In this document: piece by piece, positions 6,719 to 31,300 of the stretch
Numbering within the stretch: the stretch's first letter is position 1
Layout of the letters: each line of letters starts with the position of its first letter
DNA from: Yuukianura sp. NJ FZ-2021
Lineage: Eukaryota
Length of the DNA stretch: 64,000 nt
Direction: 5' to 3'
NCBI GenBank assembly: GCA_046563655.1
Contig: CM102285.1
Coordinates: forward strand, 9,486,001 to 9,550,000
Program-made: the position numbers and the translations under genes
The notes under the pieces: generated by a model
Database searches by the model: none
What the model was told of the DNA's origin: nothing
The model's input: only the letters and a program-made list of their open reading frames with translations

Positions 6719-7244
6719 ACTTTACATTTCCTTGCCCCAATTCATCAATTTCTGACGTAAATTATTGAAATTCTTTGCAATTTAATTTATTGCTGACCTC
6801 CTAGACCTAGAGTTCAGAATCATGTTCATTAATTTGGTCACAGGAAAATAAACAAACCCAAAATTAATAGCTTTGAATCTAAGTTTAGAAAACAAGCAAG
6901 TTTAGCGAACGAGGAAGCAAATTTAGAAGGATTACGAGATTTATTTGCAACATTTACGTCTCCGAAAGACGCAAATAGACCATGATTTAATTTCAACCTT
7001 ATTTTTAATCTTTCAAAAGTGATGACTACGCTTTGGAATGACGATGATCGCAAAAAATGACCCCGAAGGTCTAATTCATTAAAGTACAATTGGATTTTGC
7101 AAGCCTGAACTGTTGACACTTCTGCTTGAGCCAAGATATTTGAAAGAATCGCATTTGCAACAAGTTGGGACAGTCGTGAAAGCATTTGAAAATTGCTGGA
7201 CAATGCATTTGTTAAGCGTACCCGCAAATTGTATTAGTTAGGTC

Positions 7245-9508
7245 ATGGAGTGGTACTACGTGTGGAGTAAGAAACAATTTCAACAACTAAACTTTTTAAA
7301 TATTTTTAAGTTATAAATAAAATTTTGAAATTGATTTTAAATAATTTAGGGAACCCTGGAGTTCGGCTCTGCGCTATTCTCATTGTAGTAATTGCAGTCA
7401 TCAGTGCTATTAGTACGATTTTAGTGTATGCCCTCAGTGAAAACCTTACGGCTCAAGAAAAAGCTGAAAGACTTTTAGCCGAAGTGCTGCTATTTGACGG
7501 GTTGGCTGACAATATTCTAAGTTCGAAATTTTGGGAATTTTGAAAATTTGAGTTTTTTCATTTTAGACATAATGACTTCCCGACTAATGCCCGGCTTTTG
7601 GTTCGTAATGATCTAAGTCTCTTCAATTTTTCACAAAATCTGACAGAAGATGAACATTTTTCGAAAAGCAACTACTCAAAAACTGATTTACTTCGACTTC
7701 GAACTGGAGGTGTCAAGGCTCAGGTGGCGATTAGACATTTTGTCAAAATTCAAAATTTTTTTTTTATCATATTTTTTTTTTATTCGAAATTTTGTTTATT
7801 TAAAATTTAAAGTTTATTTAAAATTTTGTTTATTTAAAATTCAAAATTTTGTTTTTTGGAAACTATATTTGTATTGGCAGTTTTGGGTAGCGAGAGCGGA
7901 ATGTGACAGTCAGTTCAAAGACGCAGTGGCGATTGTGATGGAACAAATTGACTTGATTAAGAGACTTGCTGCTAACTACAGTACAGATATGGCTCTGGTG
8001 ACATCATATGAAGGTAAATTACAAATCATGATTTACTATCATTTTGATTACCTTAAATAAATAAATGTGCATTCCAGAGTTGATGGCTGCAACAGAGGAA
8101 AATAAAATTGCGAGCATGATTACAGTTTGTTGTGGAAATTCAATCCAGTGGAGCTTTGCCATTTTGAGACAGTTTTATGACCTTGGTGTACGGGCTTTGA
8201 CCTTAGTTCCAGCTCTGTGTTCCACTCCATGGTAAATCGAAAAAATCAAAATTTATTTCAAAATGCTAAAAATTTGGAAATACATAAAGCTTACGGTTGG
8301 TTTTGCTTATTTCATATTATTCTGTTCAGGGGAGACTCATCTGTAGTAGATAGACCAAATCTCACCCATAAAATGCGACCTTGGAACAGCGGCCTTTCAT
8401 CTTTTGGAGAAGTTTGTCAAAATCAAAAATTTTGAAAAAAGAACCATAGTTTCACGATTTAAGTTTCTGAAAATATTTATATGCTCACTAGGAAATTATT
8501 TATGAGATGAATCGGCTTGGGATGATCGTTGATGTTTCTGAGTCTTCGGTGGGAACGATGAAGGAAGTTCTGATTCTATCCAGGGCTCCAGTCATATTTT
8601 CCCATTCTGCTGCAAATTCTATTTGTAACAACGAAAGGAATATTCCAGACGATGTTCTCAAATTAGTAGTACGGAAAATTTCAACCAACAATTACGTTTT
8701 TTTTTAAATTGCGAAACCTAAAAACTGTTACCACCATTTCAGAGACAAAAGGATGCTCTGATAATGGTCACATTTGATCCAAGCGTCCTCAGATGTGATG
8801 ACCAAAATGTTACAATTGCTGACGTCGTCGGTGAGTCAAGCACAATTTAAGCTGAACTTTCGACGTTAAAATCGAAATAGTCGTTAAAACATATTCTACT
8901 TTCAAATTTTTACACTGTTTAATACTTCCAGAACACCTTGAGTATTTGCGGGACAAGACGACTATTGACAACATTGGGATTGGAAGTGACTTTGATACTA
9001 TCGATTCGTATGTTTTCAGTTTTAGGATTCAAAACTGTCGGAAATTTCAGTTTTCAAACATTTTTCAAAAATTTTGAGTCTAACTTTAACCAAAATTTGC
9101 TTTACTTTGTGTAGAGTGACTGAGGGACTGGAAGATGTTTCAAAATTTCCTAATCTGTTTGCAGCCCTAATTGAAACGGAGCGTTGGTCGGACGAAGATT
9201 TAGAAAAATTGGCAGGAAAAAATATGTTGCGGGTTTTGCAAGACGTTGAAGCTGTAAGGAAACGAAAATATCAAGTTTTTCTGACTTTTTATTTCTGAAA
9301 TTTTGAAAGAAATTTTGAATTCCAGGTGAGAGACAAGATGTCAGACGTGAGTCCGGTACAATCGTTCATCAAACTGGGAGACTTGAAGAAATTAGGTTAC
9401 GATCTTTCGTGTTCCTCTAACATTTTACATGAACCACAACCACAACCGCAATTTGATCTTTCGAAATTGGGTCGATTGGTTCCAAAAACCAACTATGACC
9501 TACCATAA
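7245..9508 (+). CDS. Membrane dipeptidase-like protein (M19), copy 3; probably catalytically inactive
   Basis: Short first exon MEWYYVW, then TM segment [33 protein letters not shown] and GSDFD are kept. VEGGHS becomes VCCGNS, TLTH becomes TLVP, and DLSH becomes DVSE. Start exon is inferred. Confidence 0.82.
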
Positions 9509-9943: not shown

Positions 9944-12900
9944 TTATCTGTACAGGTAATTCTTGGACTCCAAGGCTGGTTGTCCACATTTTCCGTGGTG
10001 TTTTTTCGCCACCTAAAAGTGAAATCACAATTTCTAGTAGACAAAAATTTTTAAAAATCTCAGATACGAAGAACCTGGAACCCCGCAGTTTGGCAATCAA
10101 CATTTTTCAAAATTTTGACACTTACGAGAGATCGAGATCGGCAATTTTCAATGTCTAGAAAGCATGCGTTTGAATAAGTTTTGTTATCCGTTCCACAGAC
10201 GGGGTCATACTCCATGGGACACATCTTGGAACAACCTCGAAATTGAAACGCCGCAAGACATCGCTTCATCGGAGTCACGTACATGTGTCTCCTACAGTTC
10301 AAAAATATTTAAAAACTGTAAAACCCCGTAAATAGAAAACATAACATTTCAAAAACATGGTCGAATCGTGCGAATAATTATTTGGGAAGACAATAGGAAG
10401 GATCGTTAAATCCCGAATGCATCCCTGCATTTTCCAAATCCATTAACCCTCCTCCTGGGATCCTCATGTTTATTTTACATCTCTCAAAGATCTTCTAGAG
10501 ATCTCAAAGACTCATGTCCACTTATGAAGACTTGATTCCACTTGAGGACTGAAGTTTTAGCACAATGGACATTGCATATGTACTCACCCGCAATTTGCCT
10601 TCTTCATCTCACATTCATTTCTGTAGAATTTGTTGTCTGACCCACAAACAAACTCACGACGACTCTCACAGTCCGCTTTGCAGAACTTGGTCGTTTGGCA
10701 CCTATCCAGAGACACGGAAACCACTTTTTGACCACAAGTCTCCTTCTTCATGTCACATTCGGACCTGTAAGGAACCGAAACTTTAGGAAGAATTCCACCA
10801 ATTCACAAATAATTGGGACAATCGTAACAATGGACTTTACTACGGAATCTGACAAGGGAGACCCATTAACTATTGATATGGGAAACGGTTTACGATGAGA
10901 TTCTTGAAAAACTGGGTAGAAACGGGACAAAAACGGGTAGTAAGAAAACACGCAAGAAAATTTTAATTGATTGAGTGGGCAATTAAGTAATCATCGCCTT
11001 ATTGAGGCCCGCTTAGGCAGACGGAACAACATCTCATCTTCACAAGTTATTCATTCCTGATCGTTAGTGATTTTTAATGTTTTTTTAAATTTCTTAATGA
11101 TTTTGTATATATTTTAATGATCTTACTTGTACACATTCCCGTCGGAACCACAAACGATGCGCTCATGCTCTGGTCCGTCGGGACACTTCTGCTGGACGCA
11201 AGGTTCAGAGATGCTCAGATTCGTACAAGCTCCCCAGTGAGCCATTTGAATTCCTTTTCTAAAATATTTCAAAAAATCTTGTTAAAAAACCAGAAGTTTT
11301 AAAGTTTTCAATAATGTAACGGTAGATCATAAGTACAAAGCCTAAAGACAGGTAGCATTTGTTTATGCGTTTTAAGTATTCGTTTAATAGTGTCTTGTAT
11401 GTTAGTTAAATTCCCAAGTACAATGCAAGGACAATAAAAGTTTTTTTGGCAAATGAGTAGTTAAAGTGTCAGAAAAATCTAAATTTTTGCCGTTACGTTT
11501 CATAACTGTACTGCTTAGACTACAGACTACTGGCAAAAAGTGGAATTTTGTTGCGAAAAATTTGTACCGAAAGTTTTACTGTTCAAAAAAAGTTAATATG
11601 TGTGGAGATTTGAGTTTATTAGGAACGAGCAGAATTTGGAAAGATTTCGAGTCAAGATTTTTGTATGATTTGATGAATCATTTTCTAAAGCGTGAACTGT
11701 CACGCTTTAAAAAATTTGCAGATTTTTAGTTTAAAATGCAATTCTAGCACGCGTTTCCGAAACAAAAAAAAGTCATTGCTTTGTCGCCTTTTCATTAGTA
11801 TGCAACTCGTTTTTTACTTTTCGTAGCGGAACCGAAAGTTTCCGCTTCGTTTTTTTCAAACTTTTTCAAAATCGTAACTTACCTGCATGTAGCCAATTGA
11901 AGTTGACACCAGTTCTTGTACGTGATATCGTCAGTGCCTGTTCTCGATTCAGAAAAAAAAGTAATCAAAATTTGAAATTTGGAAAATTCAAATTTTGAAA
12001 TTACGAGCTATTAATCTTCGTGGAAATTCGTTCCAAGAAATAGCCTTACCGCATACTGGGTCATAGTTATCACCACATCTGATAATTTTGCATCGTTCGG
12101 CTTTGGCGACACATTTGCTCATGGGTTCCTGCGTCACTTGGAACCGTGAAGGCCTATTAAAATAACTTATTTTTTTAGGTAACAAAAACATAAACATAAA
12201 ATTTTTGCAAATGTTCCCTTTTCCGAGAAGTGTGCAAATTCCGCCACCTCCTACCTATTACCCGGCTACATGATGGTGATTCATGGTTGACATTTTAGCG
12301 CCTCTAAAATCATCAACTTAATGTATGCAGAGAGGCAAGAAAGCACCGTTAGTATGCGACGCTGTTTTAGCTAAATGCTAACCTAAATGCTGCTTTGGGT
12401 GCTACAAAAGCACCAGAATTTTAAAAACTTTCAAAACGTAAGGGGAGGACATTTTTATATTTTAGAAATATCAAGTTGTTTATGGTTTTCCGACTACTTT
12501 TTTTCTTCTTTTGGAAAACTTTTTAAAACCGTTTCAGAATTCATGTCCCGAATTGCCGAATTTGAAATAATTTTTCAATGCTTTCTTAAGAAAGTGTTTT
12601 AGAAAAACAAGTGACTCACCCGCAATTAATTTTCTGCAACTCACAAACAGAGTTGTAAATATTTCCATCCGAACCACAAGTAAAGTTGACCGGTTCATTT
12701 TCACATGTGAATGACGATGGACATCCCATTTCAGCACGTCTCTCACGGACACAGAAGGACATTGGAACTTCATAAACATGTTTTCTAAGGAATCATAAAA
12801 TCAATCCCAGTTAATCATAATTTTAACTACGATTCGAGACAATCACGATTCACAAACAGAAGTTGAGCAACAAGGACATTAAGATGTCGATTTCTGATAT

Positions 12901-15900
12901 AGTAAAACTACATCGTAAAATTCTTTCAAATTTGAACGTGTCACACAAACTAGCTTTAGATTCAGCATTTCCTAGTTGAAGATGATTTCAATTTTACTTT
13001 GCGTTCTAATTATTTTAAATGTGCATTTTGATAATTACTTTTCCTTTATGAAACCAACATTAAAAGTGAAGATGCAAAACGTTTAGGAATTCCTGATCTA
13101 CTTATTTGTATTTGTATTTGTATTTATTTCACTCCAAGTTCACTTTTTCACTTAAAAGTAAAAAAATCGATTTAATTACTTGAACTCTTGAAAGGTTGTG
13201 AGTGACCTTGAAACTTGTGGTGCATGACCTTTGACTTCGAAAAACCAGCACAAAAATTCTTACGAGGTACAGTTGCTTATTGTTAGAGAAATAAATAATT
13301 ACCAAAGAATGATCAATCATCATTTTTTGTGACCCAGAAAATCGTTGAAGTGAACTTGAAATCAATTAATTGAAAAAATGAGAAGGTGCTAAATGATGAG
13401 GTAGGAACAATGTAAGAGCAGAAATTGAACGTTTAGTGGCACCCATTGTGAAATTGGGATCACTCGACCAGACTACGGTTCGTTTCTTTTGCAAATACTT
13501 GTAAAAGACAGAGTGGAAAAATTGTTCAATTTGCAAAAATTTATAGGGAAAACGTACCCACAGTTCTTCATCTTCATTGCGCATCCATTGTGATAGAGTT
13601 TACGGTCTGAACCACAAGTTGGTTTTGAAATCCGCCAACAAGATTCACCGCAATGTCGTGTGGTCTGACAGAGTTTCAAATTAGTCCGAACTACTCCTTG
13701 TCTGCGGAAATTCAAAGTAGAAAAAAGGAATAAGCAACAAACAATACCAAAAGAAAACAATTCAACGGTTTAGGGTTCGCAAGTGCATCCTCTCAATGCA
13801 TTGTTTTTTGCTTAATTCGATTTCCTCTCGAGAAACAAAGGAAGTGGCACAATTTGCAAAAAGTTAAATGATTTGCAAATAGCAAGCTTAGCATTCTACT
13901 TTCTTGACAAAACTTGTAAAAACTCTCTGAACTTCTTGAAAAAATAGACTGTCTTACCCACAAGTTTTAAATTTCATCCAACATGTTGACTTGTACCTAA
14001 AAGTTTACAAACGGAAATTTGGTTTTTCGAAATTTGTCTTTTGAATTACGACGAGAACTAAAATTTTGAAAAGTTTCTTACACATTTCCATCACTCGCAC
14101 AAATTGGCCCGTCGATTGGAGCATACTTGCATGAAACAGGACAGTTCTCCCTAGATGCAGTTGAATTCATACATGGTCCCATATGCGCTTCGTGAATTCC
14201 TCTCCTGAAACATTAAAACATAACCATCAAATTTTCATAATTTCAAAATAAAATTGAAATTGGCCAATTTTGGATGCACTCAGAATTGACCTTTGACCTT
14301 ACATGCAACTTTCCACTTGGAGAATGCATCTATTTAAGTAGGTGTGTCCATCCGAACCACAGACGCTGTCAAATTCGTTGTTGCATCTATGCTCACACTT
14401 GGAGCCCCTCATCTGACTGCAAGTATCCATACTCACGGCTGTAACGCCTACATCAATTTCAGAATGACATTGAATTCCAAATTGGAAAGGTTAAGGATTT
14501 TTCAAATGTTCGACAAAAACGGAAGAAGTGAATTTGGGTTGATGGGTGAAAGGTCAGGACGTTGGAGTCATTTTGTGTTGAAGTTTTATGATTCATGATG
14601 AAATTTGATCTTCTCGACAGGAGATTTCTCGTTACTGAAAATTAATTGGCCTTCAAACGAGATTCCGCCAAAGGAATAGAAGGTGGGTTACGACCACCCG
14701 AAGGTAGGATTCACGTAAATTAATTGCAGGCAAGTTATTAATTAACTCTTTTTGCAAGAAAAACTCATTTTTTTGCAAGTTCTTTCTAATCCGGCACGTA
14801 CGGAACGACATTTCAACGTTGAATTGAGTTGCTTGACATTACCTGTTCCACATGTTCTTCTCTGCATGTCGCAAATATTTGGATAGATGATGCCTTCATT
14901 TGAACAAACGGGTTCACTGATCTTGGAACACGAACGAGGACAAGGTTGCTGCTGGACAGATCCATCTCCAAGTGCTCTGTGATCACGAACTAGTAGAAAA
15001 AAATGTAAAAGTTGTAAGAAAATTCCAATGAAGAATGACAAGTAATTTCCATAAGACACACTGTTAAGTGAATGTAAAAATTTTGACACTGATAGTAGCC
15101 AAGTCGTGGTTAAAGTTAAGTGATTTTCAGTTGATTGAAATCTACAAGTTTTTTTTTCTAACAAAAATTTCACACGAGTACTCTCAGACATTACATTTGC
15201 TTAAATTGACCTAATTTTGAAATGTACCACTCATGACTTGAATTTTTAATTTCAAAAATTAACACACGTCAATTTTTTCTTCTAAAAAGTCAAACCTACT
15301 CACGCATCAACACAGTTTAAGAGAAAAGTGTTGTGATGTTTGGGTGTTAGTTTTTGATTAAAATTTTTAATGATTTTGAAATGATATTTGAATTTTTTGT
15401 TTTCTTTTTATTACGTTAACTGTGGATTTGTCTTTTGACTAAACTTAAATGTTCTGCTCATGAAAAAGGAAGAAAGCAATTTAGAACCGAAATGATTTAC
15501 TGTCTAGCAGAAGATTGAGGTAGGTTATGGAAGAACACTCGAACAAAACAAACAATTTACTTTTTATTTGCACAAGATGCACAAAATCCAATTACAAAGT
15601 CAACCTTAACTGTAGAAGTGAAGTGCAATTTAAAGTTGGCCAATTTGAGCTAAGGTCCTCCTCCCAAGACCCATTTCCCGTTGAATTGGAAGTGAAATTA
15701 GGTCAGGTTAAGACAAAACTTGAAATTGGAAATTGTTAGGAGATTTTGTGGTGTGCCGAGGATTTTCGCATACAACTTGTCCTTCTTGCTTTTGAAAAAA
15801 GTTAAACGATTAAGTTTTAGGAACCGCGGAGGCTAACGACCTACGAATCCTTGTACACGTTGACAAAGGTTGACAACTATGCCAAGTTGTTTGCCAACGT

Positions 15901-18129
15901 TCCAAACCTAATTACAATTGATCAAAGAGCTCCACGACATGACAAGAGATCAAGTTTCAGAAGATCACATCAACAACATCTTGCGTCCGCATCCAATCTT
16001 AGGATGAGGTCAACTAAAGAGACTAAACCTTGTCAATTTCATGGTCATGGGTTTCTAAGCCTACCTATCAATTTTAACTCTTTTGTGAAAGTCAGTAGCT
16101 TTCTCCTGCTTCTTTATTTACCAATCTGTGTCAAAACTAAAGTCACGAAGAGCGGATATCAAACAATTGGTTTTCCAATTGACATGATTCATCACAATCA
16201 AATTCTAAGACTATAGTAAGTACGATTCCCATTGTTTTAGTTAACCTCTTTGAAAAAGCACTGCGTCACTACGGACTCCCACTTTCGCAATGACACGCCG
16301 CTAATTTTTGCCGTTGGTAATAGGACTGAACAAGCAACTAAATGTTACCCCCCGGATTTGGGTTTTCGTTGTGTGATTAATGTGCAAGCACAAACAAACC
16401 AAAAAAAAATGTGTAAATATTTTTCAAAAACACAGGTACAATTTTGGTCAGCACCTTTTGGACAAAAAGAAAGGTACTAAAAAGTGTTTTGAAAAAGTGA
16501 TTTCCATTAGCGAGGTCAGAGGTCAACAGAGATTAAACAGAAGGATTGGAGGACAACTCATCTTTAAGAGTGTTTTTGGTAATTACAGGTTAAATCCACT
16601 TCCCAATTCCGATCATTTTTTTTTGCAACTATGAATGTACTACTGGAAATGGGAAACTATTTTTTGATGAAGCAAAGGAAGGGTGGATCCTCATCTTTTT
16701 TTTTCATGTGCCAAACAATGTACTTGTTTCCTTTTTTGTTTGGTGGTAGGAAATGATCTTGAGTCATTCCCGCATCTGCCTTTACGCAAAAAGTATTCTT
16801 TTTGGCCAAAAATTTCAAGCTAAGCTCATCCCGAGATGTAATCATCACAAAAAGTTGGCAAAGTTCAGACAAATCACTAAATCCATTTCCGTTTCACGTA
16901 AAAAGCTAAGAAACGGCTCCTTTCCTGAAACTTTAAAAAGAGTGAAAGTACAACTTCATTTTTTCTCTCGTAATTTTATGTTATTTGAACCATAGCAAAT
17001 TAGGACCATTACGCCGTTGTTCAAAATTTTTACACAGGTACACGATTAATGTACAGATCAAACAGATTTCGAAGTTTCTCAACGTATTTTTTGGCAACTT
17101 TTTAGACACTTTTTAGCAAAAATTTGGACTCGCTGAAAAGTAACTTCTACCAACAGTAAAAGGCTTTTCTAAACTAACACAAAAGGAGCATCATTTATCC
17201 ACCACTACCCCGACTACCAATTTATACCGTCAGATTCAAAATCTGCATTTTGAGCTCACGCCGCGTGTAGCACTTAAATTCAATTGTCGTGAGCCAGAAT
17301 TTGCAAAAAACTTCATGTGGAAAATGTTGTAGGGCCAATGGAAACAATAGGGAAGTGAGAAGTGTGTCGGAATTGAGACTGACTTAAGGACTTTACTCCG
17401 CTCATGCATATTTTCATGACAATCTTCCTAAGCTGAGGCTTCTCTTTAATTTGAAGTGATGGGAATGAATGATGGGAAGAATTCAAACACGTTTTGGACG
17501 AACAACAACCAGGTCATCCTGAATTCACCCTTCACCTTTTTAGGACTCACATTAAGTGCTTCAAAAGGACAATTTGTGCAAAATTGGCCAATTTTAAGAA
17601 AGTTTTAATCATTTTCCAAACACATTTCATTAGCAAGTGGACGCGAAAAAGATGCGAATTGTAAAAAAGGAAGGAAATATAGGACAGGATTTGAATTTTT
17701 AAGTTGAAAAACAGGAGAAAGCGGTGGTGGGTCAGTGGACTTAATTCGAATTGCACTTGCGAAAACAAGAACAGTAATTTCTGCACTTGTCGAATTGAAA
17801 TTGAAAACTACTTGATTGATAGTGCGTAGTTCAAATGATTAATACTCACACAAAGTGCCTGCCAATTATTCACACCAATAAAGTTTAAATTCTAACCTCA
17901 ATTTTTCAATGTCAAGTTTTCCTTTTCTAAATTGCACAGATTAAAATTTGAAACAGATACAAGTATAATAAAAAAAGCACTAAAGCGTGTAAGGTGAGAA
18001 GCATGTTTCATTTCATTCAAAGTTGTGACTGTTCAAAAAGGAATGCTTACGGATGGTGAGAATGGAGATCAGCAACAAGAATTCCACTGGCGCAGACGAA
18101 AATTTAAAATTTTTTGATGATTTCGTCAT
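9944..18129 (-). CDS. Secreted multi-Kazal-domain protein (9 Kazal/follistatin-like repeats; arthropod 'agrin-like' type, resembles Drosophila CG32354 from memory)
   Basis: Signal exon 18051-18129 ([26 protein letters not shown]) splices in phase to [28 protein letters not shown]. Successive exons give C-x-C...(P)VCG(S/T)DG/N-x-Y-x-C repeats, e.g. [24 protein letters not shown] and [24 protein letters not shown]. Last exon [22 protein letters not shown], stop 9944-9946. Confidence 0.85.
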
Positions 18130-19446
18130 TTTGGTGCTTTTGCTTACAAGTCTTTAAATCCTTGTTTAATTTTCAGTTTAGTTGAAAATTCCGGAGCACA
18201 TAACTGTCCAAATTGATTAAAAAAATGACAAATCACTCGCCCTAAATTTTTTAGGTTCACTTACTCTGGTTCGAAATTCTTAATCTTCTTGTTTTAAAAA
18301 TTTGAAAACACTATTCAATTGTCTTTGTCTGAACAATGAAAAGCTTGTGTCATTGAGTTCCTTGAAAGATGATACCTGCCAACTCCTTCTGGCTCAAGTC
18401 TGAGACTAAAGTGAAAATTTTTCTTCCGCTTCAAACCATCATCATCATCTTCTTCATCCCATCGACTTTGATGCATCTTCAAATGGTTTAAAAGTTAGGT
18501 GTACTCTGTACATTAGAGTCCATTAGTTACTCCCTTTCCCATGCAAAAAGGGACGCTAAAGTATAAAATTTCCCGAAGCTTTCAAAAATGTAAAAAAAAA
18601 AGTAAATCGAATAAATTCAAGAATTTATTCGAATTCGCATTTTTACATCTTTTCTTTAGCTTTTGAGCTTGTCATAGCTTTACTTTTTTCAAATTGTAAA
18701 TTAATCAGATTCATGCTGATTTACTGATGGTTATCTTTGATTTTCAGATTTTGAAAATTTACAATACAAAGGAATTCAGCAGTTTAAGGCGCAAAATTAT
18801 TACTTTGTTCCCAGGATTTCGATGCGTGTTTCAAAACAAGTTATTATTGTTGATGTGTTTGTATTTCTGCAAACTAAAGAAATCGCTGATTTAATGGCTG
18901 TTCCCAGGATTTGTGAAAACATTTCGACTGAAACTAGAACTGGAACAAGGGATAATGCGAAGTCTTTAAATGTGGGACAAACAATCATGACGAAATGTGT
19001 CACTTGAATTTCTGCTTAAGGACATTCTTCAAAGTGTGAGAACATGCTCAGACCGTATTAAAAATGAAGTGATGATTTGTTTATGATTTTTATGAATATT
19101 TTTATGAATTATTTACCATTCTGAGGAACTGAAATTGATGGAGCATTCTCGAACTGCGTCATATTCTATTATCCAGGAAGAATAAAATGACTGAAACTGA
19201 GCCACTTTGGTCAGTTCAGCAGACAAAGTACTCAAATCAACTCGGACAAGAAATGTGACAATCAATTGCCAAAAGACTTAGACATTTTTAGATTCCAGTT
19301 TTCTAAAGTTTGGTTAAAAAGTCAAATTTAGTCAAAAGCCTAAAGTAGAAAACGTATGTAAAACACCGTAAACTCAGGCTTAAGAGTTTGCGGTAATCTC
19401 TGCTCACGCGTCGTCAAATTCGCGTCGTATTTTTTTCGCAGCAATC

Positions 19447-19452
19447 TCAGTT
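19447..19452 (+). promoter_or_regulatory. Initiator-like element (TCAGTT) upstream of the RelA/SpoT-like gene
   Basis: Matches the arthropod Inr consensus TCAGTY and ends 40 nt before ATG 19493. CGCGTCGT occurs twice just upstream. Confidence 0.45.
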
Positions 19453-19492
19453 CTCAACAAGTACAAATTCAGATTTACAAAAATCTGAAAAA

Positions 19493-20297
19493 ATGAATGT
19501 CCAAGAAAGTTTGGATTCTACCTCAAAAGAAATGGTGAGCAAAATTCCAGACTTTTAGAACAATAAATTGTTTAGAACTGGGGACAAATCCTGCTAATTT
19601 CAATCTTAAAGTCTGAAATTCAGTTTTCCAATTCTTTTAGTCTCTTTTACTGGAAAGGCTGGAATTGCTGGAGAAATTGAGCAACTCTCCAGGCCCAGTG
19701 GCTCCAAGTTCCAAAAAAGTTGCAAAGGAGACTTTGCAGCGGTATACGACGCGCGCAGAGGACCTCGGTTTGAAACAACTCAAAGATCGACTAGAAGATC
19801 TTTGTTTCCAGCTACTCCACCCCGTCGAACGAAATCGAATTATCGAAAAAGTCAGATGCATCTTCGGTCTTCCAGGTCGTGACACCTTGAGACTCATTTT
19901 GGACAACTTGACCAAAACGCTTTTGTCCAATGGCCTTGGTCACTTTGAAATTCTGGGAAGACAGAAAACTCCATTTTCAATTTACCAAAAACTGAAGCGG
20001 AAGTCACTAGAAGTAGAACAACTACGAGATGTCCTTGGTTTCCGAGTAATCGTTTCGTCTATTCCGGAATGCTACATGACCATGTCCATTCTACATGACA
20101 TTTTCCCTATGGAGATCAGTGGATTCAAGGACTACATTATGTTTCCCAAGGATGAAGGGTACCAGTCCCTCCACACGACCATCATTGGTCCTTACCAGAA
20201 ACGAATCGAAGTTCAAGTGAGGACTGTGGACATGGACACTTACACCAAGGCCACTTTGTACAAGGAGTACTGGAAACAAAAGACTTCATTTGTCTAA
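19493..20297 (+). CDS. RelA/SpoT-family (p)ppGpp synthetase, synthetase-domain only (~232 aa), two exons; likely horizontally acquired from bacteria
   Basis: Exon 1 is 19493-19534 (MNVQESLDSTSKEM|GTGAGC). The intron 19535-19640 ends TTCTTTTAG and exon 2 (19641-20297) is in frame. Synthetase motifs: GRQKTPFSIYQKLKRK, LRDVLGFRVIV, FKDYIMFPKDEGYQSLHTT, IEVQVRT. The upstream helices VAKETLQRY..AEDLGL..LKDRLEDLCF match the end of the Rel hydrolase domain. There is no HD motif and no TGS/ACT domain. Confidence 0.9.
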
Positions 20298-23050
20298 AGT
20301 CTGTTTTAGACATTTACACATGTTACTACATGCTCAAATACACCCACGTCCAATATTTTCTAAGCACAGTTTTTGAATTCTGAACAATCGTGTCCATTGA
20401 ATACGTTTTCTAAGAAAATTTTGTTTGAAAATGTTTAGGTTTTTTATAATGAAAAGCCTAGATTCAAAAAGTATTTTTAAAAGTTCTGCGCATTGTGTAC
20501 TTTACAATTTAAATATTTGCAAAACAAGTTTAAGGTAGGATAGTCACGGATCCAGTTCTCAGAAACTAAAAAATGGTCCAATTTCTTAGAAAAAATAAAC
20601 ACAATTTTAACTACAATTTGCAGTATGAAATAACTCCATTCATTAACTATGTTCCTTTACTACGAAACTAAAAAACCGAAGAAGCTCATAAAGTAAATGA
20701 ATGATACTCACACAATGCAGACAAACTCCCACGTCACATTATCCAAAATTACATGATTGTTAGCTTGAAATGCAATTCGTTCGTCTAAAAACTCCGTTGT
20801 TTTCAGAACTACAATTTGAAAACGGCATAACCTTATGAATTGTGAAAATTACAAATTGTGAGAATACGCGGATTCTGAAGCGTGTCACTCCAGAATTCAG
20901 AGGCTACATTGCATGTCATGTCACCTCAAGAATTCTTAAGTTGAGAAGCTTGAGATTACGTGGACTGTTATGTTTCAATTTCCTAAGAAACTTAACCAAA
21001 GCCACCTTGTCTCTGACTTGACCTACAAAGGGTGACCAAGAGAATGCAAAAATTTAAGAGGGATGCATAACGGAATCAAGACTTAAATCTTTAATCCCAA
21101 CAAAAGACAATACATTTTTATGTGATCTGTCTCTTCTCAAAAGGAAACAATAAAAACCTGAATGTAGATCTACCCCCTTCTGCACCTCATCATGGCTCTA
21201 ATCACTTGGAATGTCAAAATGCCTCTTGCCAACTTGAGGTAAAACTGATGAGGGTGGAGGATAAGTTGACCTTTAAGAAACAGTAAAGGTCAAAGGTCAA
21301 TCAATTTACCAGATCTTGGAATTGGCCTCCTTGGTGGAAGAACAGCGGAGAACAGAATCAACGAAGCACCAAAAGCTGTCAGTGAAGTTAGGAATCCCAT
21401 TTGGAAAGCCAACGGAAGCTGAAATTTGAGGAATGTGCTACTAAATTGACAAAACAAATCTAGAAAATCTTTGTAAGATGGAACCACTGTTAACGATTAA
21501 ATTAGAACTGATGACTGATTTCAAATGTGGACTTGCCTGTGCCAAATACTAGTTAAAAATTGAAGTAGTAATTGATCTGAATTGGTGTGCTACAAGGAGG
21601 ACACACCTTAATTGAAAGTGAACTTACGCCACAAGAGCAATTGCTATAAGATTCACGTAACATCGACCATAAATTCATCTTTAACGTTTAATTTTTGCAC
21701 TAGGCAATCCTGGGGGTGTTACAAATAAGGAACATGTCTTCCGCAATTGCCCTAATTAAGGGCTAACGGTATGAAGAAATGTAAGCTTAAGGCGCAAGGG
21801 CGACAACTTTCACTCGCATAACTTTAAGTTGCAATGAAAACAAATTCCAACGCAAGGAAATGGAAGAAAATAAAAGAAAGCAGAAAGACCTGGAGAATTT
21901 TTTTTAACAGCAAATAATTTGATTGGCCGATTAGCAAATAGCAAAGTCTAAAAAAACAGACGCTGGAATTGCTGCAATCCTCGGTTTCTCCTGCGTAACT
22001 CACGCATGTAGGGCGTGGCCTTTCAATTTAGCTTCGTCTTATAACTGGTCTCCGGCTTCGACTAGCAGGACAGCTACGGAGAAGTGATTGGCTGCTTGCT
22101 AGTCTGAATCCCCAATTTTAGTTAGACAAGTACTAAGGTGGTTGATGTAGCGCATCAACTGATACAAAATTTCCGCATTTTTATTGGTTATTTTACTATT
22201 TTCACACAGTCTTATTAATTATTGCATTAAGCATTTGTTTTTATACATTCCTAGCATTTATGTACGTTTATGTTCAGTGAGTGAAAGTTGTCGCCGTTGC
22301 GTTTGCAACTTCTGTTTAGTTACATTTAGTTACATTAGCTTCTTTCGGTTTAGTTTTAGTTTTAGGCTTTTTCTATTGGCTGGCCACGGGGTCGTTTATG
22401 CCTTTCTCAGAGACACACCTCACTTTACCTGAATATTCGGATATGTGGCAAGAGCTGGACAAGAGAATTTAAGATGTCGATGTTTAGTTTCCGCAACATA
22501 GGTTTATTGAAATTGGGTGGCGAAAGGCTGATGAAGGTCACTAGGTCAAAAGGTCAACAACCTGAACGTTTTGGTAGAAAGAGGATGGCGCAAGTTTCCT
22601 CCCCAGTCCCCATTTGTTCATGTTTGCCCCGCCCGACTCTATCAAAGAAAAGCACACATCACGTGGTATCTCATCCCGCGTTGAACGTTTTAAAAACTAT
22701 TCGAATTGAATTGAATTTCATTCATTTGAACCGAGACCGAAATAAGTTTTAAAATTTAATTGGACTCAATTTAACTGAACAGCTGAGAAAGGTATCGTTG
22801 AAATTCCTAACTTTTTGTAGTTTTGTTAATTTGCATTAATTCATGCTTTTTTATAGCGTTGAACATTCTTGGTTTTGATTGTTCTGGACATTGAGTTGAT
22901 GTTTTAATTCTATTTGACCTTTGAGGACTTTACTAGTAACCGTCACCTTAACCGTTGTCGTCTAAATATTCTGCATCCATTACCACCCGAAGTCACTTCG
23001 TCGGTCATCGTCTTGTCAGTCGTCGCCCACCAGAGAGAACATAAGCGATT

Positions 23051-26000
23051 ATGTCAACCAAATTGTATCAAGAGTTGAACTCTTCGACAGCGGAAGACGA
23101 AGCCAACGATTCTGAATTGAAAAATCAGCTGGAATTTGATGAAAAATTTTCGGAAAACGAGGCTTGGATCATTGTTGACAGCTACTTTAAGAAATTCAGC
23201 ATCTCAACTCAACAAATAGAATCTTATAACGACTTTGTGGACAACATGATTCCAAGGATTTTGGACGACGTTCCTGAAATCAAAATTGAAGATCCAGTCA
23301 AGAAGGTAAGTCATTCCAACTCCAGCATTGTTAAGCCTAAAACCAAATTGTCTATTGTAACCTGATGACAACATGTCACCTTATGAAAATCTAATATCGT
23401 TTTTGGTCGTTTTCAGAAGATACATCATTTTGAGTTTACTTCTGAGGGATATGAACTGAGACAGCCCTGTTTTATCGAATGTGACGCAGAGGTATCGGCA
23501 ATCTACCCTAATACTGCACGTCTTCGGAATATATCCTACGCTGGAGACCTGTCAGTTAAAGTCAAATACATGACAACGGTCGAGCGGAAGTTGAAGAAAG
23601 AAGTTACTCCTGGTAGAGCAACCACGAAGAAGAAGAACTTTGTCATAGGGAGAATCCCTATAATGGTCATGTCGAAATACTGTCGACTGGCGAGCTTGGA
23701 TCCTGCATTGCTTCAGAATACTCGAGAGTGTCCAATGGACCCAGGAGGATACTTCATTATCGAAGGCAAAGAAAAGGTAAGCCCTGAATGGTTCCTTGAA
23801 ATGATATGATATACTTGTCCAATATGCTTTCAAGAAATGCAATGCGAACATTTTTGCTGGTAGGTGGTGATCTCACAAGAACGTGCTGCTAACAATACAC
23901 CGTTTGTGTTTCGAAAATACTCGAACTCGAAATCATTACTGGAGTGCGAAATCAGGTCTGCCAAGGAAGACACCTCTGCCTCTGCTAGAGCGTTTTGGGT
24001 GAAACTGTTTCAGCAGAAAAAAAGAATTGACGACAAACGTGGTATTTGGAAAAAGACAAGCGAGATGTTCTGCAAGGAGTTCATAATCAAAGTACATTTT
24101 CCCGGACTTTCGTCAGATGTTCCGCTTCATGTTCTCTACCAAGCAATTGGATTCGATAACCCGAAACTCGTGTACGAATCTATTGTCGAAGTATGCTCCA
24201 ACCATGTCACCAGCCTTGAACAAGCTAGTCTAAGTTGTATTGTGCCAATGTTACTGCCATCACTCCAAGCTTGGAAATCTCTATCCGCAGATGAAGCCAA
24301 AGATGAAATAGGTACTTACCATCATTTCTGCCAGTAGTAATGTGATCTTAAGCTTCGCTGAACTTTTGTTTCGGTTTTTAGGCACTTATTATGTTCGACC
24401 TAAAACAGACTACAGCAGATACAGCGTTGACGAAGAAATGTTCGAGGAGCAGACGAGGCAGGAACGACATAGATTTGTTTCTGATTTGTTGTTACACGGA
24501 TTCTTGCCTCATATTGGAACGGAGGCTTCGGTAGAGTGTTTCAGGAGGAAGGGCTTGTTTTTATCGTACATGGTTTGGAAACTTCTCATGGTGTTCGCTG
24601 GCAAAATCCCACATGATGACAGGGACCACCTTGAAAACAAACGTTATCAGTGTAGCGGACCCTTACTGGCACAAATTTTTCAACAAGGCCTGCACTCCCT
24701 ACGACAAGAAATGGAAAAACTGCTACGAATGCAGATTCGTAAGGGCGAGGATCCGGATATTGGTAGAGCAATGTCGCCTACATTTATCACTAACTACATC
24801 AAGCACTGCCTGGCTTCCGGAACATGGGGAAATATACGTGAGATGCGAAGCAAGAACAGTCGCATTTATTCCAACGTGACGCAGGTAAGTCGTAATTAAA
24901 CCAGTTCACTTTGACATTTTTTTCATTTGATGATTTTTCTAATCTGCAATACTTTCAAAATAGGAGCTGAACAGATACACACGAAATTCTCATTTGTCGT
25001 CTCTCCGTCGATTGAGCAGCGCAGAAGACAAACTTTCACTCATGACAGTTCCACGACAACTCCATTCCACTTACTTTGGATTCATTTGTCCGTTCGAGAC
25101 TCCCGAAGGTGTATCAATTGGGTTGAGCAAGAATATGGCACTTTTGGCCCAAATCACAGTTAGCGTTCCTATTCAAAAAGTAATCGAGTTTACCATATCA
25201 GAAGGTGGAGTGACTCTACTTGAAGATGTGGTAAATAACAAACTTTACAGAACGTGGTAAGCCTCTGAACTTTTTCTTTGGAAATACTGAACGTCGCAGT
25301 TTCATTGAAATGTCAATTTTCTGTTTTAGTGTCACCAAAGTTTTTGTGGATGGGCGATGGATTGGGTCGGTGGAGCATCCAACAGCATTTGTTACAAAGT
25401 TCAAGGCGGCAAGAGTATCTGGCGAGCTGAGCCACTACATCTCTATCTGTTGGGATCGTTCAACCAGGGAGATTTACATTAGAGCAGACGCAGGGAGACT
25501 TTGTCGTCCCTTACTCGTGGTTCGTAATAACTGCCTTGTTCTGCAACCTGAACACGTCAGTAAACTGAAAACAGGGGAGTTAGGGTGAGCGGTTACATAT
25601 TTTCTTTCCTGAGATTTAAGTTAATTTTTTAAGTTAATGTTAACTGAATTACCATAAACTTAATACAATCATTTTTAAGGTGGAGCGATCTTATTCGGCT
25701 GGGATGTGTTGAGATAATCGATGTTCGAGAATCTGAATCCTGTCTGATTGCAATGGATTTACCTACATTGAAGAGTTCAACCGATTCAAATTCAAACCTA
25801 AAGAAATTCACGCATATGGAGATTCATCCAGCACTCATAATGGGGATATGTGCCTCAACCGTTCCGTTCCCAAATCATACCCAGTCGCCTCGGATTGTCT
25901 ATCAGGTTAATTTTTTATATTCTAAGTGATTTGTTTCATTTGATCAAAATCTTTGTTTGAAAAGGCTGGAATCGCAAAGCAAGCAATGGGTATTTACGGA

Positions 26001-28180
26001 GCAAACCTGTTCAATCGGATGGATACAACATCACATTTCTTGAACTACGGTCAACGCCCTATTGTCCAAAATAAGTCGATGAGATATTTCAATTTTGATG
26101 AAGTTCCGGCTGGAACTGTCTGTACAGTGGCTATTGCGGCATATACCGGATATAATATGGAGGACTCCATCTTGCTCAACCGCTCTTCTGTGGAAAGAGG
26201 ACTCTTTCGAGCCACGATGCTCAACACGTATCAGGAGAAGGCAGAGAAAATTCGTTACGCCGATTCGGCAAGCGTAAGACCCGATTTTGTATTACAAGAT
26301 ACTAAAAAAAAGCATTTTAGAATTTTTGAAACAAATATGATGACAGGAATACGTGTTCACCTATCCAAGCTGTAAGGTAACACAAGGAGTAAAAGTCATT
26401 GGTACCGGATGCAGCGAAGAAGAAAAAATGAAGTTGTATAGGAATATTGGAACGGATGGGCTTCCTACCCCAGGGGAGAGGCTTGGCTATCGTGACATTG
26501 GCAACGTCAAACGTAAAAGTATGTCATCATACTCTAGAGACTACGATGCGTTGGAACAGCAGGCCATCATTGGTACGTTACATTCAATGTTTTCAAAATG
26601 GCGGGTTGATGAACTTTATCATTTCCAACTTTGTTGCATTTTTTGGTAAATGCTTAGGAAAAGTGAGGTGTCTTACCGAGAAAGAAATTCAGGAAGCCTC
26701 AGCAAAACTGAGCGGAAGGGACCCACATAGACTGAACAAAATCGAAAGTCCATTCGTCTTCCAAGACGCAAGCAAGTTCGATCGGAAACCAATATTTTCA
26801 TGCATTGACAACGTTCTCGTAACGATGAATTCGATCGGGGAACGACTCGTGAAGGTTCGAACTCGGAAGCAACTGAAGCCACAAGTAGGAGATAAGTTTG
26901 CTTCACTTCATGGCCAAAAAGGTGTCATTGGATTAGATTACCATGAAGTTGTAAGTTTTAATTTGTTATAATTTTAACATCAGCAGTTTGACATGAATTA
27001 GCTATCGTAATTATTGGAATGAAATTTTTTGCAGGATTTGCCTTTTACCAGTCAAGGCATTATTCCAGACTTGATAATGAATCCGCATGGGATCCCCTCC
27101 CGGATGACAATTGGACAGCTATATGAGTCACTTTATGGCAAGGCTGCGTGTTTGGCGGGTAAAATAATGGACGGTACGACTTTCCATGCTCGAAACCGCC
27201 AAAAAATGGAAGATATACTGAAGGCTCACGGTTTTTACGAAGACGGAACAGAAGTAATGTACTGTGGGCATACCGGGAGAAAGATGAATTCTCGAATTTT
27301 CATTGGACCCACCTACTATCAGGTTAGAAGCGTCTTACTAAAAAAAATTATGGAGTTAGCTTCCGCAAAACTGGTTCTGTGGTACTTTATCACGTACAGA
27401 CATAATGTTGCATTAATCGGTTTGGTTTCAACTTGTTTTTTTAGCGTTTGAAGCATTTGGTCGACGACAAAATTCATTCTCGAGCCCGTGGAACCGTCGA
27501 AGTCCTTACACAACAACCTGTCCAAGGCTTTTCTCGTGAAGGAGGCTTGAGATTTGGCGAAATGGAGCGAGACTGTATCATTTCCAACGGCTCCTTTCTG
27601 TTTTTGATGGAACGACTAATGGATGTAAACCACCAATATTTTCAATTCTTTTGTGCTTTCAAACATCTCGAAAATTATGGAAGTGTTCACTACTTAACAT
27701 CTTACAACTTAAAATTAGTAGCTTAAAACGTGGTGAAATACCAAAAGTACACACGTTAGTCGTCATGGATTGCTTGCTGATTCTGATCTCTTATAGGTCT
27801 CGGATGCCAAGAAGTTTACGATCTGTTCAGAATGTGGATTTGTTGGTAGCAAGAGTCCGCTGTGGGTGGAAGAAGCGAAAGACAAAGGAGCCCGCAGAGC
27901 AGTGATAAAGAAGTCTCCAGTTTGCACGTCATGCGGCAAAGAAACCGATACCAGGATCCATAACCCTCAGGTAAGCCTAGCTGTGTTGTTTTAGTGTGTG
28001 CTAGAGTTTGAAAATATCAACCGATGTGTGATGGGAGACTTTTTAAAAAACGTTTTACTTTGAATGTAGTGTTACACGGTACGAATTCCTTATGCCGCCA
28101 AATTGCTTTTCCAAGAGCTCATGTCGATGAATATCGCTCCCAGAATTGTTCCCGCTGAAGGCAGGAGCACCACTTCATAG
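23051..28180 (+). CDS. Divergent RNA polymerase II second-largest subunit (RPB2/POLR2B-like) paralog; ~14 exons, ~1,300 aa
   Basis: Approximate exons: 23051-23305, 23417-23776, 23864-24311, 24382-24884, 24964-25256, 25330-25584, 25680-25905, 25965-26273, 26348-26572, 26658-26950, 27035-27321, 27445-27624, 27797-27970, 28070-28180. Motifs: [123 protein letters not shown], Zn ribbon [28 protein letters not shown]. Confidence 0.92.
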
Positions 28181-28391
28181 TGAAATGAGCATGTGGGAGG
28201 ATCTTATCGTTAGTTGCTTATTTTTAGAGAATTTTAGTGAAGAAATTCAGAGATTTAAATTATACGTTATAAAACGACTTTATAAAATAGTTATACCGAA
28301 GGCGTTATAAATAAACCGAAATTCCAAATTCTCTCGACCTTCAGCTTTTTTTTTTGAAACAACTAATATTTTATTTGATAAATTAACGAAT

Positions 28392-31300
28392 CTAACCGCT
28401 AGAATGAATAACATATAGGATCCAGTCGATAATATCTTGAAGCGGAGTGACAGTGATCCTCTTGTGTTGACCATGGGGACCATACGAGCATTCCGTTCCG
28501 TAGGAAACGACTCCAACGATGACAGCACGACTGTAGTCGTCAGCTTCATATTCCGCGGGAATTGCGGAGATCTTGTACTCGTGTTTGTACTCCGGTTGAG
28601 GATAGTAAGGCGCTGCCGCTTTGTACTCCTGCTTCGGTTCGTAGGAAGGCTTGTACTCTGGCTTGGACTGGTAGGACGGTTTCGGATAAGACGCTGGCTG
28701 GTAATACTCTGCTGCCCGCTTGTATCTTGGCTGGTACGGTTCCGAGTACTCCGGCTGATACACTGGTGCATATTCCGGTTGATACGTCGGTTGATACTCT
28801 GGCTGATATGGAGGTTGGTACTCCGGTTGATACTCTGGCTGATATGGCTGGTACTCGGGTTGGTAGCTCGGCTTGTACTCCGGTTCGTACGCTGGCTTGT
28901 ATTCTGGCTGATATGGCTGGTACTCGGGTTGGTAGCTCGGCTTGTACTCCGGTTCGTACGCTGGCTTGTATTCTGGCTGATATGGCTGGTACTCGGGTTG
29001 GTAGCTCGGCTTGTACTCCGGTTCGTACGCTGGCTTGTATTCTGGCTGATATGGCTGGTACTCGGGTTGGTAGCTCGGCTTGTACTCCGGTTCGTACGCT
29101 GGCTTGTATTCTGGCTGATATGGCTGGTACTCGGGTTGGTAGCTCGGCTTGTACTCCGGTTCGTACGCTGGCTTGTATTCTGGCTGATATGGCTGGTACT
29201 CGGGTTGGTAGCTCGGCTTGTACTCCGGTTCGTACGCTGGCTTGTATTCTGGCTGATATGGCTGGTACTCGGGTTGGTAGCTCGGCTTGTACTCCGGTTC
29301 GTACGCTGGCTTGTATTCTGGCTCGTAAGATGGTTTGTACTCAGGCTGGTAACTGGGCTTGTACTCCGGTTCGTAGGATGGTTTGTACTCCGGCTCGTAA
29401 GATGGTTTGTACTCAGGCTGGTAGCTCGGCTTGTACTCCGGTTCGTACGCTGGCTTGTATTCTGGCTCGTAAGATGGTTTGTACTCGGGCTGGTAGCTCG
29501 GCTTGTACTCAGGTTCGTACGCTGGTTTGTACTCCGATTCGTAAGCTGGCTTGTACTCCGGTTTGTACTCGGGCTGGTAGCTTGGCTTGTATTCTGGTTC
29601 ATACGACTTGTACTCCGGCTTGCATTCGGAATGGTATTCTGGTTTGTAGTAAGCCTCATCCTTCGGCTTGTACTCGGGTCCATAGGCTGGTTTGTACTGG
29701 GATTTGTACTCTGGCTCGTACGAAGGCTTGTATTCGTGCTGGTAGCTCGACTTGTATTCTGCGTGATAAGGTGCGTAGTGGTATTCGTATTTCGCAGGAA
29801 CTAAACAAAAGACCGGGGCTCCTTCGTCAGCCTAAAATTAAAATTCCAATTATTCTCCAATTTTGGATTACAAGTATTCAAAATTCCAATGTCGGTTTGC
29901 TTACATGACAAGTGTCGTAGTAATCCTCAGCTTCCCAGTTCTCAGTCTTGTAATGTTTTTCGTAGCCATAGCCCTGTTTGTAGGAAGGCGCGTAGTTTTG
30001 GTACTCGTACACCTTTGTGATTTGCGCTTTCCGTGGAGTTCTGCTGGGTTCGTAGTAGTCGTAATAGGTGGTGGGTTTGTAGGAGTAACCGTGGCCATAC
30101 TGCGTCGATTCCTCCTTCTGCTGCTTGTACTAAAATTATTTTTCAAAAGTTAAGAGTTTGGTCATCACATTTTGAGCGGTATTGCCAGTTTAGCAAAGAG
30201 AGAGAGAGTTACTTACTGAAATTTTCTCAACAGGAGAATGCTTCCACCCGGCGGTCCAGCAAACTACATCATTGTCCTTGGAACGGCGAGGTAGCCCGAA
30301 GTACTTGTTGTAATACGGTTTCTCTTGGTAGTATGACTTTTGCTTCTGGTAGTATTCCGGAAGGCAGATGGGATCTGCGTGTGGATGGACATCGAAGTCA
30401 ATTTCTTCGTAAAGTTCCAGAATGACCACGTCATACTCGTATTGGTTTTCCTTAGGATACCCCTTTTGCGCTGCAAAGTTAAAGTAAATCAATTGAGTGA
30501 GGTTTCATTCAATGGTTGAGTAGTGGCTGAAAACGAGCATTGGAAAACTTTGGCCAAGATAACATACCAGGGTTGTAATGATGAATTTTGCTAACAGCGA
30601 ATTCATGATTTCTGTAGGCCTCCAATGAATTGTGGTCCGACAGAAGATCGAATTCTCCAATGCGTACAACTACCTCGCCCTCGCGTCTCCCATGAATGGC
30701 CTTGGAAGAAGTCAAGATGTGTCTGTAAAGATGAAACAGATTACAATGATAGGTAAAGTTATCTCTTATGACAATTTCTAATTACACACCAATTTGCATT
30801 TTAGCAAAATGAATACCTGGGTGAGATGATGGTTCCAGCGGCCAGATAGACATGTCGCGTGTCCAGAACTGCTACAAGCCATGGAAACTCACCGAATGCC
30901 AATCGTTGCAGATCATTACCATATTCAATACGGTGAACCGCTGGAAGAATGCCACACTGTCGACTCGAATTGGCTGGCCGATACTGGAAATAAAAAAAAA
31001 TCTACGTGACCTTCTGAAATTCCAATAAACTAGGCTACGGTCAGTCTAAAAAGGAGGTGAACAAACTCTGAAGGTCATTTCAACTTACGTCGATTTCAGT
31101 CTCGTACGTTGGCTTTTCGTAGTAAGTCGGCTTTTCATAGCTCGGTTTCTCGTAGTACGTTGGCTTTCCGTAGCTCGGTTTTTCGTAGTACGTTGGCTTT
31201 CCGTAGCTCGGTTTCTCGTAGTACGTTGGCTTTCCGTAGCTCGGTTTCTCGTAGTACGTTGGCTTCTCGTAGCTAGGCTTTTCGTAGTGCGTTGGCTTCT

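Follow-up and report, generated by a model that had tools for sequence, protein, structure and literature searches.

The window analysed here is a stretch of 64,000 nucleotides (nt) of Yuukianura sp. NJ FZ-2021 (GenBank assembly GCA_046563655.1, contig CM102285.1, positions 9,486,001 to 9,550,000 of the forward strand), and it contains a predicted two-exon gene (19493-20297, +) whose predicted product of 232 amino acids (aa), about 27 kDa and pI 9.0, carries the synthetase domain of the RelA/SpoT homologues (RSH). The explanation favoured here, with a probability of roughly 0.6, is that a fragment of an alphaproteobacterial long Rel/SpoT gene was fixed in an animal nuclear genome and adapted to its host, and that it would encode a small (p)ppGpp synthetase without regulatory regions. 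This explanation is built on the sequence, the fold, the genomic integration, the bacterial ancestry and the conservation of the catalytic residues in three diverged proteins, and from these we infer the splicing, expression, activity, product, localisation and physiological role of the gene. The transferred fragment would extend from the last helix of the HD (hydrolase) domain to just past the EVQxRT strand, and in the animal it would have come under a host promoter and received a spliceosomal intron together with a short new first exon that supplies the start codon. The protein would transfer pyrophosphate from ATP to the 3'-OH of GDP or GTP, giving (p)ppGpp, and how much it makes available would depend on transcription of the gene and on hydrolysis of the product by Mesh1 or Nudix enzymes.

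Gene model and synthetase domain

Exon 2 of the predicted gene corresponds to a stop-to-stop frame (19641-20297, +) of 218 open codons; its translation of 218 aa, protein P0001, is the one to which residue numbers such as R107 and D130 refer. The gene and its signals show the following distribution in the window (Inr, initiator; UTR, untranslated region; GC, guanine plus cytosine content):

19447-19451, + strand: Inr-like TCAGT, transcription start predicted from the sequence, with A+1 at 19449
19493-19534, + strand: coding part of exon 1, 14 codons (MNVQESLDSTSKEM), with the ATG at 19493
19535-19640, + strand: predicted phase-0 intron of 106 nt, GTGAGC...TTCTTTTAG, GC 31%
19641-20297, + strand: exon 2, 218 codons and a TAA stop (20295-20297), with the last HD helix (degenerate), the helical linker and the synthetase domain
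19956-20249, + strand: RelA_SpoT synthetase domain (P0001 residues 106-203)
19959-19991, + strand: synthetase motif RxKxxxSxxxK
20028-20045, + strand: synthetase motif DxxGxR
20130-20174, + strand: synthetase motif DY..K..GYxSLH
20208-20225, + strand: synthetase motif EVQVRT
20594-20599, + strand: first AATAAA past the stop, a candidate poly(A) signal by prediction; the 3' UTR would be of about 300 nt

The first Met in exon 2 is residue 146, already past the ATP-binding motif, and on the 5' side the exon-2 frame closes at once, so that a functional product needs an upstream exon. The junction 19534/19641 proposed in the earlier note is exact, with GT at 19535 and AG at 19639-19640, and it gives the 232 aa, the splicing itself being a prediction from the sequence; the Inr-like TCAGT(T) named in the same note is present at 19447. 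The predicted leader (19449-19492) has 44 nt without an upstream ATG, and the start codon lies in an A-rich context, AAAAAATGA. No bacterial counterpart was found for the 14 codons of exon 1, and the predicted intron resembles those of the adjacent RNA-polymerase subunit gene in size and ends. The coding sequence has a GC of 43.8% (49.4% at third codon positions), nearby host exons have 41-44%, and the intron and flanks have 31-36%. Since the predicted 232-aa product shows no signal peptide-like hydrophobic stretch, it is read as probably cytosolic; its N-terminus is acidic. A direct repeat of CGCGTCGT, a possible promoter element, is located within 19400-19430, with copies 8 nt apart, approximately 20-45 nt 5' of the Inr-like TCAGT.

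P0001 matches positions 1-99 of the 113 of the Pfam profile PF04607 RelA_SpoT, with 101.9 bits (cut-off 27) and E 3.3e-29, and this is the sole domain detected in the 232-aa protein, which is the architecture of a small alarmone synthetase (SAS). It also matches positions 131-308 of the 687 of TIGR00691 spoT_relA (E 3.6e-49), with 167.7 bits against a cut-off of 499.2, and reaches 39.3 bits, against a cut-off of 320, with the RelQ-type profile NF053588 GTPPhKinYjbM. By sequence, the protein is thus placed as a member of the RSH synthetase superfamily and as a SAS by architecture, and by profile it falls outside both the RelQ/RelP and the long-RSH families. The four synthetase motifs that the earlier note had read in a synthetase-only protein of about 232 aa are intact in P0001: R107-x-K109-xxx-S113-xxx-K117, D130-xx-G-x-R135, D164-Y...K-x-x-G-Y174-x-S-L-H178 and E190-V-Q-V-R-T195. 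In an alignment of 80 sequences (P0001, two short relatives and 77 bacterial matches), ten columns are invariant: K109, K117, D130, R135, Y145, D164, Y174, H178, E190 and Q192.

In Rel enzymes, ATP is bound by the Arg/Lys/Ser motif and Mg by the Asp, the Tyr loop stacks against guanine, and the Glu serves as the catalytic residue. Because P0001 keeps all four of these elements, the protein is predicted to synthesise (p)ppGpp. Synthesis by long Rel is restrained by the HD domain and by the C-terminal region from TGS to ACT, and because the hydrolase half and the ribosome-sensing TGS/ACT region are absent, the activity would be expected to be constitutive. On the hydrolase side, the remaining helix is degenerate, reading L-L-E-R-L-E-L-L in P0001 against L-A-D-R-L-H-N-M in bacteria. 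As judged from its sequence, the gene product represents the central portion of a long Rel/SpoT, in which the final helix of the hydrolase domain is followed by the helical linker and the synthetase domain.

An AlphaFold2 model calculated from the 80-row alignment (mean predicted local distance difference test score 93.3, predicted template modelling score 0.85) shows five N-terminal helices, a five-stranded sheet with helices, and one long C-terminal helix. The top Foldseek matches of this model in the PDB are Rel catalytic regions with probability 1.00, such as those of S. aureus (7oiw, E 1.9e-17) and T. thermophilus (6s2u), and the highest TMq, 0.79, is that of B. subtilis Rel (8acu_B); RelQ and RelP rank behind Rel, with E values of about 1e-7 against about 1e-17. 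Both this ranking and the profile scores (167.7 against 39.3 bits) bear out the earlier claim that the protein is a fragment of a long RSH and not a classical RelQ/RelP SAS. The closest PDB match of P0001 by sequence is the N-terminal domain (NTD) of M. tuberculosis Rel, residues 162-347. Since the 355-residue T. thermophilus Rel catalytic construct 6s2t aligns to residues 5-198 of the query only, the C-terminal cut falls outside the crystallised catalytic region, and by this comparison P0001 appears to lack nothing that the Rel catalytic constructs need C-terminally.

Short relatives, ancestry and known systems

A HMMER search of 1.84 billion representatives gave 8431 matches at E <= 0.001, of which the two best are short proteins: P0002, with 203 aa, 61-62% identity to P0001 and 253.9 bits, and P0012, with 218 aa, 44-45% identity and 176.6 bits. 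The other matches, among the best 150 of the 8431, show 32-45% identity; most of them have about 700 aa and some are shorter and probably partial. When a profile of the three members was compared with 5.8 billion proteins of 111-382 aa, only P0002 and P0012 were recovered (397 and 380 bits), and the next score, 219 bits, belongs to fragments of bacterial long RSH. As far as these sequences go, the synthetase family is a very small, lineage-restricted one. P0002 is known from one contig of 5276 nt, and P0012 from one contig of 3652 nt found in four sources, where it is annotated as 'GTP pyrophosphokinase'. The three proteins show a common N-terminal boundary at the L-L-x-R-L helix, the helix itself being missing in P0002, and a common C-terminus, Y-W-K/R-Q-K-T-x-x-stop. 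P0012 is a complete open reading frame (ORF) with its own ATG at the shared N-terminal boundary. The catalytic columns are conserved across the three, as compared at the level of protein sequences.

P0012 did not turn up among 185,579 prokaryote species genomes, though both scan patterns fit it. A scan of 241 million metagenome records with peptides taken from P0012 itself did not recover it either, and the best matches there are bacterial loci with 35-40% identity. Among plasmids, 79 records match P0012, all with less than 60% identity, and the best ones listed lie in long chromid-borne Rel genes. Viral contigs gave 168 pattern matches and no relatives; an origin with a viral island beside the odd polymerase gene was therefore dropped.

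The scan of prokaryote genomes, which was guided and biased by its patterns, gave ten loci, all of them in Alphaproteobacteria: uncultured Rickettsiales (43%), Magnetospirillum, Rhodospirillaceae, Fokinia and Midichloriaceae. Two trees were built from unbiased top matches and named anchors, one with 97 rows and a quick search and the other with 49 rows and a careful search under LG+C20. Both trees pair P0001 with P0002 (100/98) and add P0012 next (100/99). The clade of these three short proteins branches from a comb of alphaproteobacterial Rel/SpoT, with no single sister group. The named non-alphaproteobacterial rows form a separate clade with support 99/97, which contains Bacillota, Acidimicrobiales, Bacteroidota, two Steroidobacteraceae, Caldimonas, Ghiorsea, Anaeromyxobacteraceae and Moraniibacteriota. 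The phylogeny suggested in the earlier note thus places the short proteins within the long-RSH clade in two trees, and its impression of an alphaproteobacterial wording agrees with their grouping with named Alphaproteobacteria, apart from the 99/97 clade; by sequence, an alphaproteobacterial long Rel/SpoT ancestor is supported. P0012 is closest to Rhodospirillales, with 47% identity to Magnetospirillum and 48.6% to Azospirillum chromid genes.

Of 301 sampled genomes of the donor phylum, 294 have a match, and all the matches listed are in uninterrupted frames, nearly all of them of 635-874 aa, two of about 390-410 aa, and none as short as those of the P0001 family. The absence of the HD site and of the TGS/ACT domains claimed in the earlier note stands, while the loss of these parts after capture, which it had also proposed, is one of two possible orders of events: the flanks show no remnants and the boundaries are shared by P0002 and P0012. 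Because these two proteins have the same N- and C-terminal boundaries, the truncation could have preceded the transfer.

Compared with known systems, the window protein shows the same catalytic motifs and the same fold as the long Rel/SpoT of Alphaproteobacteria (the nearest named ones being from uncultured Rickettsiales, Magnetospirillum, Azospirillum and Holosporales), whose linker and synthetase regions are 38-43% identical to it and 47-49% identical to P0012. Its FKD-type motif is, we assume, that of the class of bifunctional Rel/SpoT enzymes. Unlike them, it has 232 aa instead of about 700-800, it is encoded by a eukaryotic gene with a predicted intron, and it lacks the HD catalytic core and the TGS, helical, zinc-finger and ACT/RRM regions. 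Like RelQ and RelP (YjbM/YwaC of Firmicutes), it is a single-domain synthetase of the size range of about 210-230 aa without a sensor domain, and regulation by expression would be expected. However, it has approximately 100 residues of Rel linker helices at the N-terminus in place of the SAS N-terminal elements, and in the AlphaFold2 model only one helix past the EVQxRT strand; the SAS tetramerisation helix is presumably absent.

Engineered constitutive fragments (E. coli RelA' 1-455 and Rel NTD constructs with solved structures such as 6s2t, 5xnx and 7oiw) have also lost the C-terminal regulatory half, and in Rel fragments of this kind the catalytic region is active and toxic; they retain the HD domain, whereas the window protein also lacks the HD core and its truncation is natural. 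The animal small alarmone hydrolase Mesh1/HDDC3 represents the other half of the RSH superfamily, a different domain with the opposite activity, and would be the presumed counter-enzyme. The divergent SAS 'divRel' of Aspergillus, Gibberella, Dictyostelium and diatoms, compared here by description only, is likewise a synthetase-only RSH in eukaryotic nuclei. In the parts of the survey of Atkinson et al. (2011; PMC3153485) that deal with it, divRel of non-animal eukaryotes is attributed to bacterial transfer and is reported from no animals.

Genomic context and host integration

Five runs from two studies with two organism labels cover the stretch, and the assembled contigs of four of them were placed on positions 12000-28000 of the window; three of the runs (X1, X2 and X5) come from one sample and may be the window's own source. 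In the independent study (X4, with the other organism label), a contig of 883 nt (record 19) spans 19402-20275 unbroken and contains the leader, exon 1, the intron and nearly all of exon 2, with 26 letter differences and 11 gap letters relative to the window. Another contig of the same study (record 20, 4442 nt) goes from 20246 to 24640, with a small replaced piece at 22382-22414, and reaches inside the polymerase gene. Independent data thus show the gene physically linked to host genes. Contigs 18786-19999 and 20067-20692 of X1 join the gene to non-coding DNA on both sides, with depths of 213 and 201, and the neighbouring contigs have depths of 209-223. No DNA contig of the four runs joins 19534 to 19641 without the intron. 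With the gene, its intron and its flanks present in contigs of two studies, the check for a chimeric or contaminant contig proposed in the earlier note came out in favour of a genuine host locus, and contamination or a chimeric join is very unlikely.

Two observations on these contigs concern copy number and the 3' flank. In X4 the gene-bearing contig has a depth of 18.7, against 6.6 in the adjoining contig, and it stops close to each end of the gene, which may point to additional copies of the synthetase gene in that organism. Contigs of X1, X2 and X5 show loose ends at the same two sites, 20599 and 20840, just 3' of the gene, which suggests an insertion/deletion or a haplotype difference in the 3' flank.

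The window looks eukaryotic and invertebrate-animal-like in its sequence, and the earlier statement that the gene sits among ordinary animal genes agrees with its split eukaryotic neighbours and with the contigs of the two studies. The following genes were found around it:

2695-9295, + strand: split Peptidase_M19 (membrane dipeptidase) genes, in two or three tandem copies
10.1, 13.5 and 14.9 kb: Kazal inhibitor exons
23045-28150 (about 23.1-28.2 kb), + strand: many-exon gene of an RNA-polymerase second-largest subunit, with Rpb2 domains 1-7
in the window: TRAF-type zinc finger, alpha/beta hydrolase, ubiquitin-conjugating enzyme and GNAT genes
in the window: several split trypsin genes

The Pfam scan shows no match at 15.2-19.4 kb nor at 20.3-23.0 kb, and the DNA on either side of the synthetase gene is non-coding, with the AT-rich composition seen elsewhere in the window. 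A tblastn search with four long Rel proteins detects 19695-20291 alone, with no remnant of HD, TGS or ACT in the flanks and no second copy in the window, where the other matches of long Rel are at chance level. Neither a Mesh1/HDDC3 gene nor a bacterial-type neighbour of the synthetase gene was found within the window.

Aligned in full with animal RPB2, the polymerase subunit is only about 38% identical, and its best-conserved stretch of 100 aa reaches no more than 51-59% identity with anything found, the best named match being a crayfish 'RPB2-like' protein; it is either a Pol III subunit or a divergent paralogue. A duplicated gene pair on the minus strand, 28280-29910 and 33140-34222 with 31050-31550 and 35362-35934, contains long tandem P-E-Y-K-P-S/A-Y and Y-E-K-P-S/T-Y repeats. 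In the minus-strand reading, the first gene of each pair closes with about 90 non-repeat residues, and the Pfam scan of the one ORF of the pair that was scanned (33168-34145) shows no match. A block at 49876-52219 stands out by its GC of 56%, compared with about 37% in the surrounding DNA. Several of its frames are open on both strands, it contains repeats of the type G-G-V-P-R-T-F/P-P-P-R-G, and it is probably a satellite or low-complexity repeat.

Alternative explanations and biological meaning

Several points weigh against a host-adapted (p)ppGpp synthetase. The helix past EVQVRT reads K-E-Y-W-K-Q-K in place of the bacterial A-A-H-W-x-Y-K, and a G instead of an R precedes FKD in P0001; these two changes could mean a change of substrate or product. 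The stem of the short-protein clade is long, with 0.87 changes per site. Transcription and the predicted splice rest on sequence, and P0002 and P0012 are each known from a single contig. An unregulated synthetase would need tight control, and none is visible at the gene; ubiquitous expression of a bacterial SAS is lethal in flies, according to the part of Ito (2020) that bears on it.

A silent or decaying relic of a bacterial insertion, for which the model of exon 1 and intron would be a coincidence, gains from the predicted status of splicing and transcription, from the size of the family (three members, after which the score falls from 380 to 219 bits) and from an exon-2 frame without its own start codon. 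It is nevertheless improbable, since a frame of 218 codons is open in DNA of 36% GC, and since the three proteins, at 44-61% identity, retain every one of the ten universally invariant catalytic columns and have the same N- and C-terminal ends. The long shared stem implies age, the base composition fits that of the host exons, and the parts of the gene model fit together, from the Inr and the leader free of ATG through the A-rich start context and a host-sized GT-AG intron to the AATAAA. A neofunctionalised nucleotidyl-pyrophosphotransferase would keep the fold but no longer use GDP or GTP as acceptor, and it would act as a toxin or immune effector instead of an alarmone source; in toxic SAS subfamilies the acceptors are adenine nucleotides, giving (p)ppApp, or tRNA 3' ends. 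The long stem branch, the altered C-terminal helix, the location of the gene beside protease and protease-inhibitor genes, and a weak match of 59.6 bits to the candidate defence family PADLOC PDC-S33 are in its favour. That match, however, is far below the 167.7 bits with the long housekeeping RSH, the guanine loop G-Y-Q-S-L-H and all the other Rel-type motifs are unchanged, and the protein nests in alphaproteobacterial Rel/SpoT and not among SAS. The product has no signal peptide-like hydrophobic stretch, and such a change of function seems unlikely too. With its weak PDC-S33 match and no bacterial-type gene as neighbour, the gene does not resemble a toxic SAS or defence-associated RSH.

Where the short form arose bears on the route of the gene and is compatible with a host gene now. 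It may have arisen in an unsampled bacterial, protist or viral lineage and spread more than once, P0012 being such a source form: this protein is as near to Rhodospirillales Rel (47-48.6%) as to the window protein (44%), has a prokaryotic-style annotation, and has a full ORF whose own ATG coincides with the N-terminal boundary of the family. This origin is doubtful, as P0012 was recovered neither from the prokaryote species genomes nor from the metagenome records, the viral contigs contain no relative, and no plasmid match reaches 60% identity. Bacterial or symbiont reads joined to animal DNA are a common source of bacterial-looking genes in animal assemblies, and the RelA/SpoT of Capitella is judged to be such a case in the relevant part of Atkinson et al. 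(2011; PMC3153485). Here an assembly artefact or contamination is hardly credible: the coding frame requires a spliceosomal intron, no other bacterial genes or domain remnants lie nearby, and the AT-rich non-coding flanks are like the rest of the window. The gene, intron and flanks are in contigs of two studies with two organism labels, one of these contigs reaches the polymerase gene, and no bacterial sequence found exceeds an identity of about 45%.

If the host-adapted synthetase is the right explanation, the gene bears on alarmone biology in animals, which keep the hydrolase Mesh1 and in which ppGpp has been detected in flies and human cells. The synthetase gene would leave the ppGpp of flies and humans unexplained, since its family has so few members and is restricted by lineage. 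The earlier note had held that no animal ppGpp synthetase is established, and the literature still says so where it touches the matter: a passage of a 2023 review describes SAS as 'absent in the metazoa' (PMC9965611), and the relevant portions of the literature up to a preprint of December 2025 contain no known animal synthetase. No report of an animal (p)ppGpp synthetase was found in full-text literature, although large catalogues of horizontal gene transfer could still list one.

Tentatively, the lineage may have a native (p)ppGpp synthetase that, together with the animal Mesh1, would rebuild a two-enzyme alarmone circuit switched on transcriptionally, for example in starvation, dormancy or infection. 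The domestication and the roles put forward in the earlier note (stringent-like signal, dormancy switch or antimicrobial effector) would likewise be possibilities. If so, this would be the first animal in which ppGpp synthesis is assignable to a gene and open to manipulation, and it would offer a natural system for the role of host-made (p)ppGpp in animal cells. It would also let one ask how an animal tolerates an enzyme that is lethal in flies when ubiquitously expressed, and in what way a housekeeping regulator of bacteria is shortened and put to new use once it has been transferred. For the RSH family, it would mean that small alarmone synthetases can arise by truncation of a long Rel, independently of the SAS subfamilies described so far.

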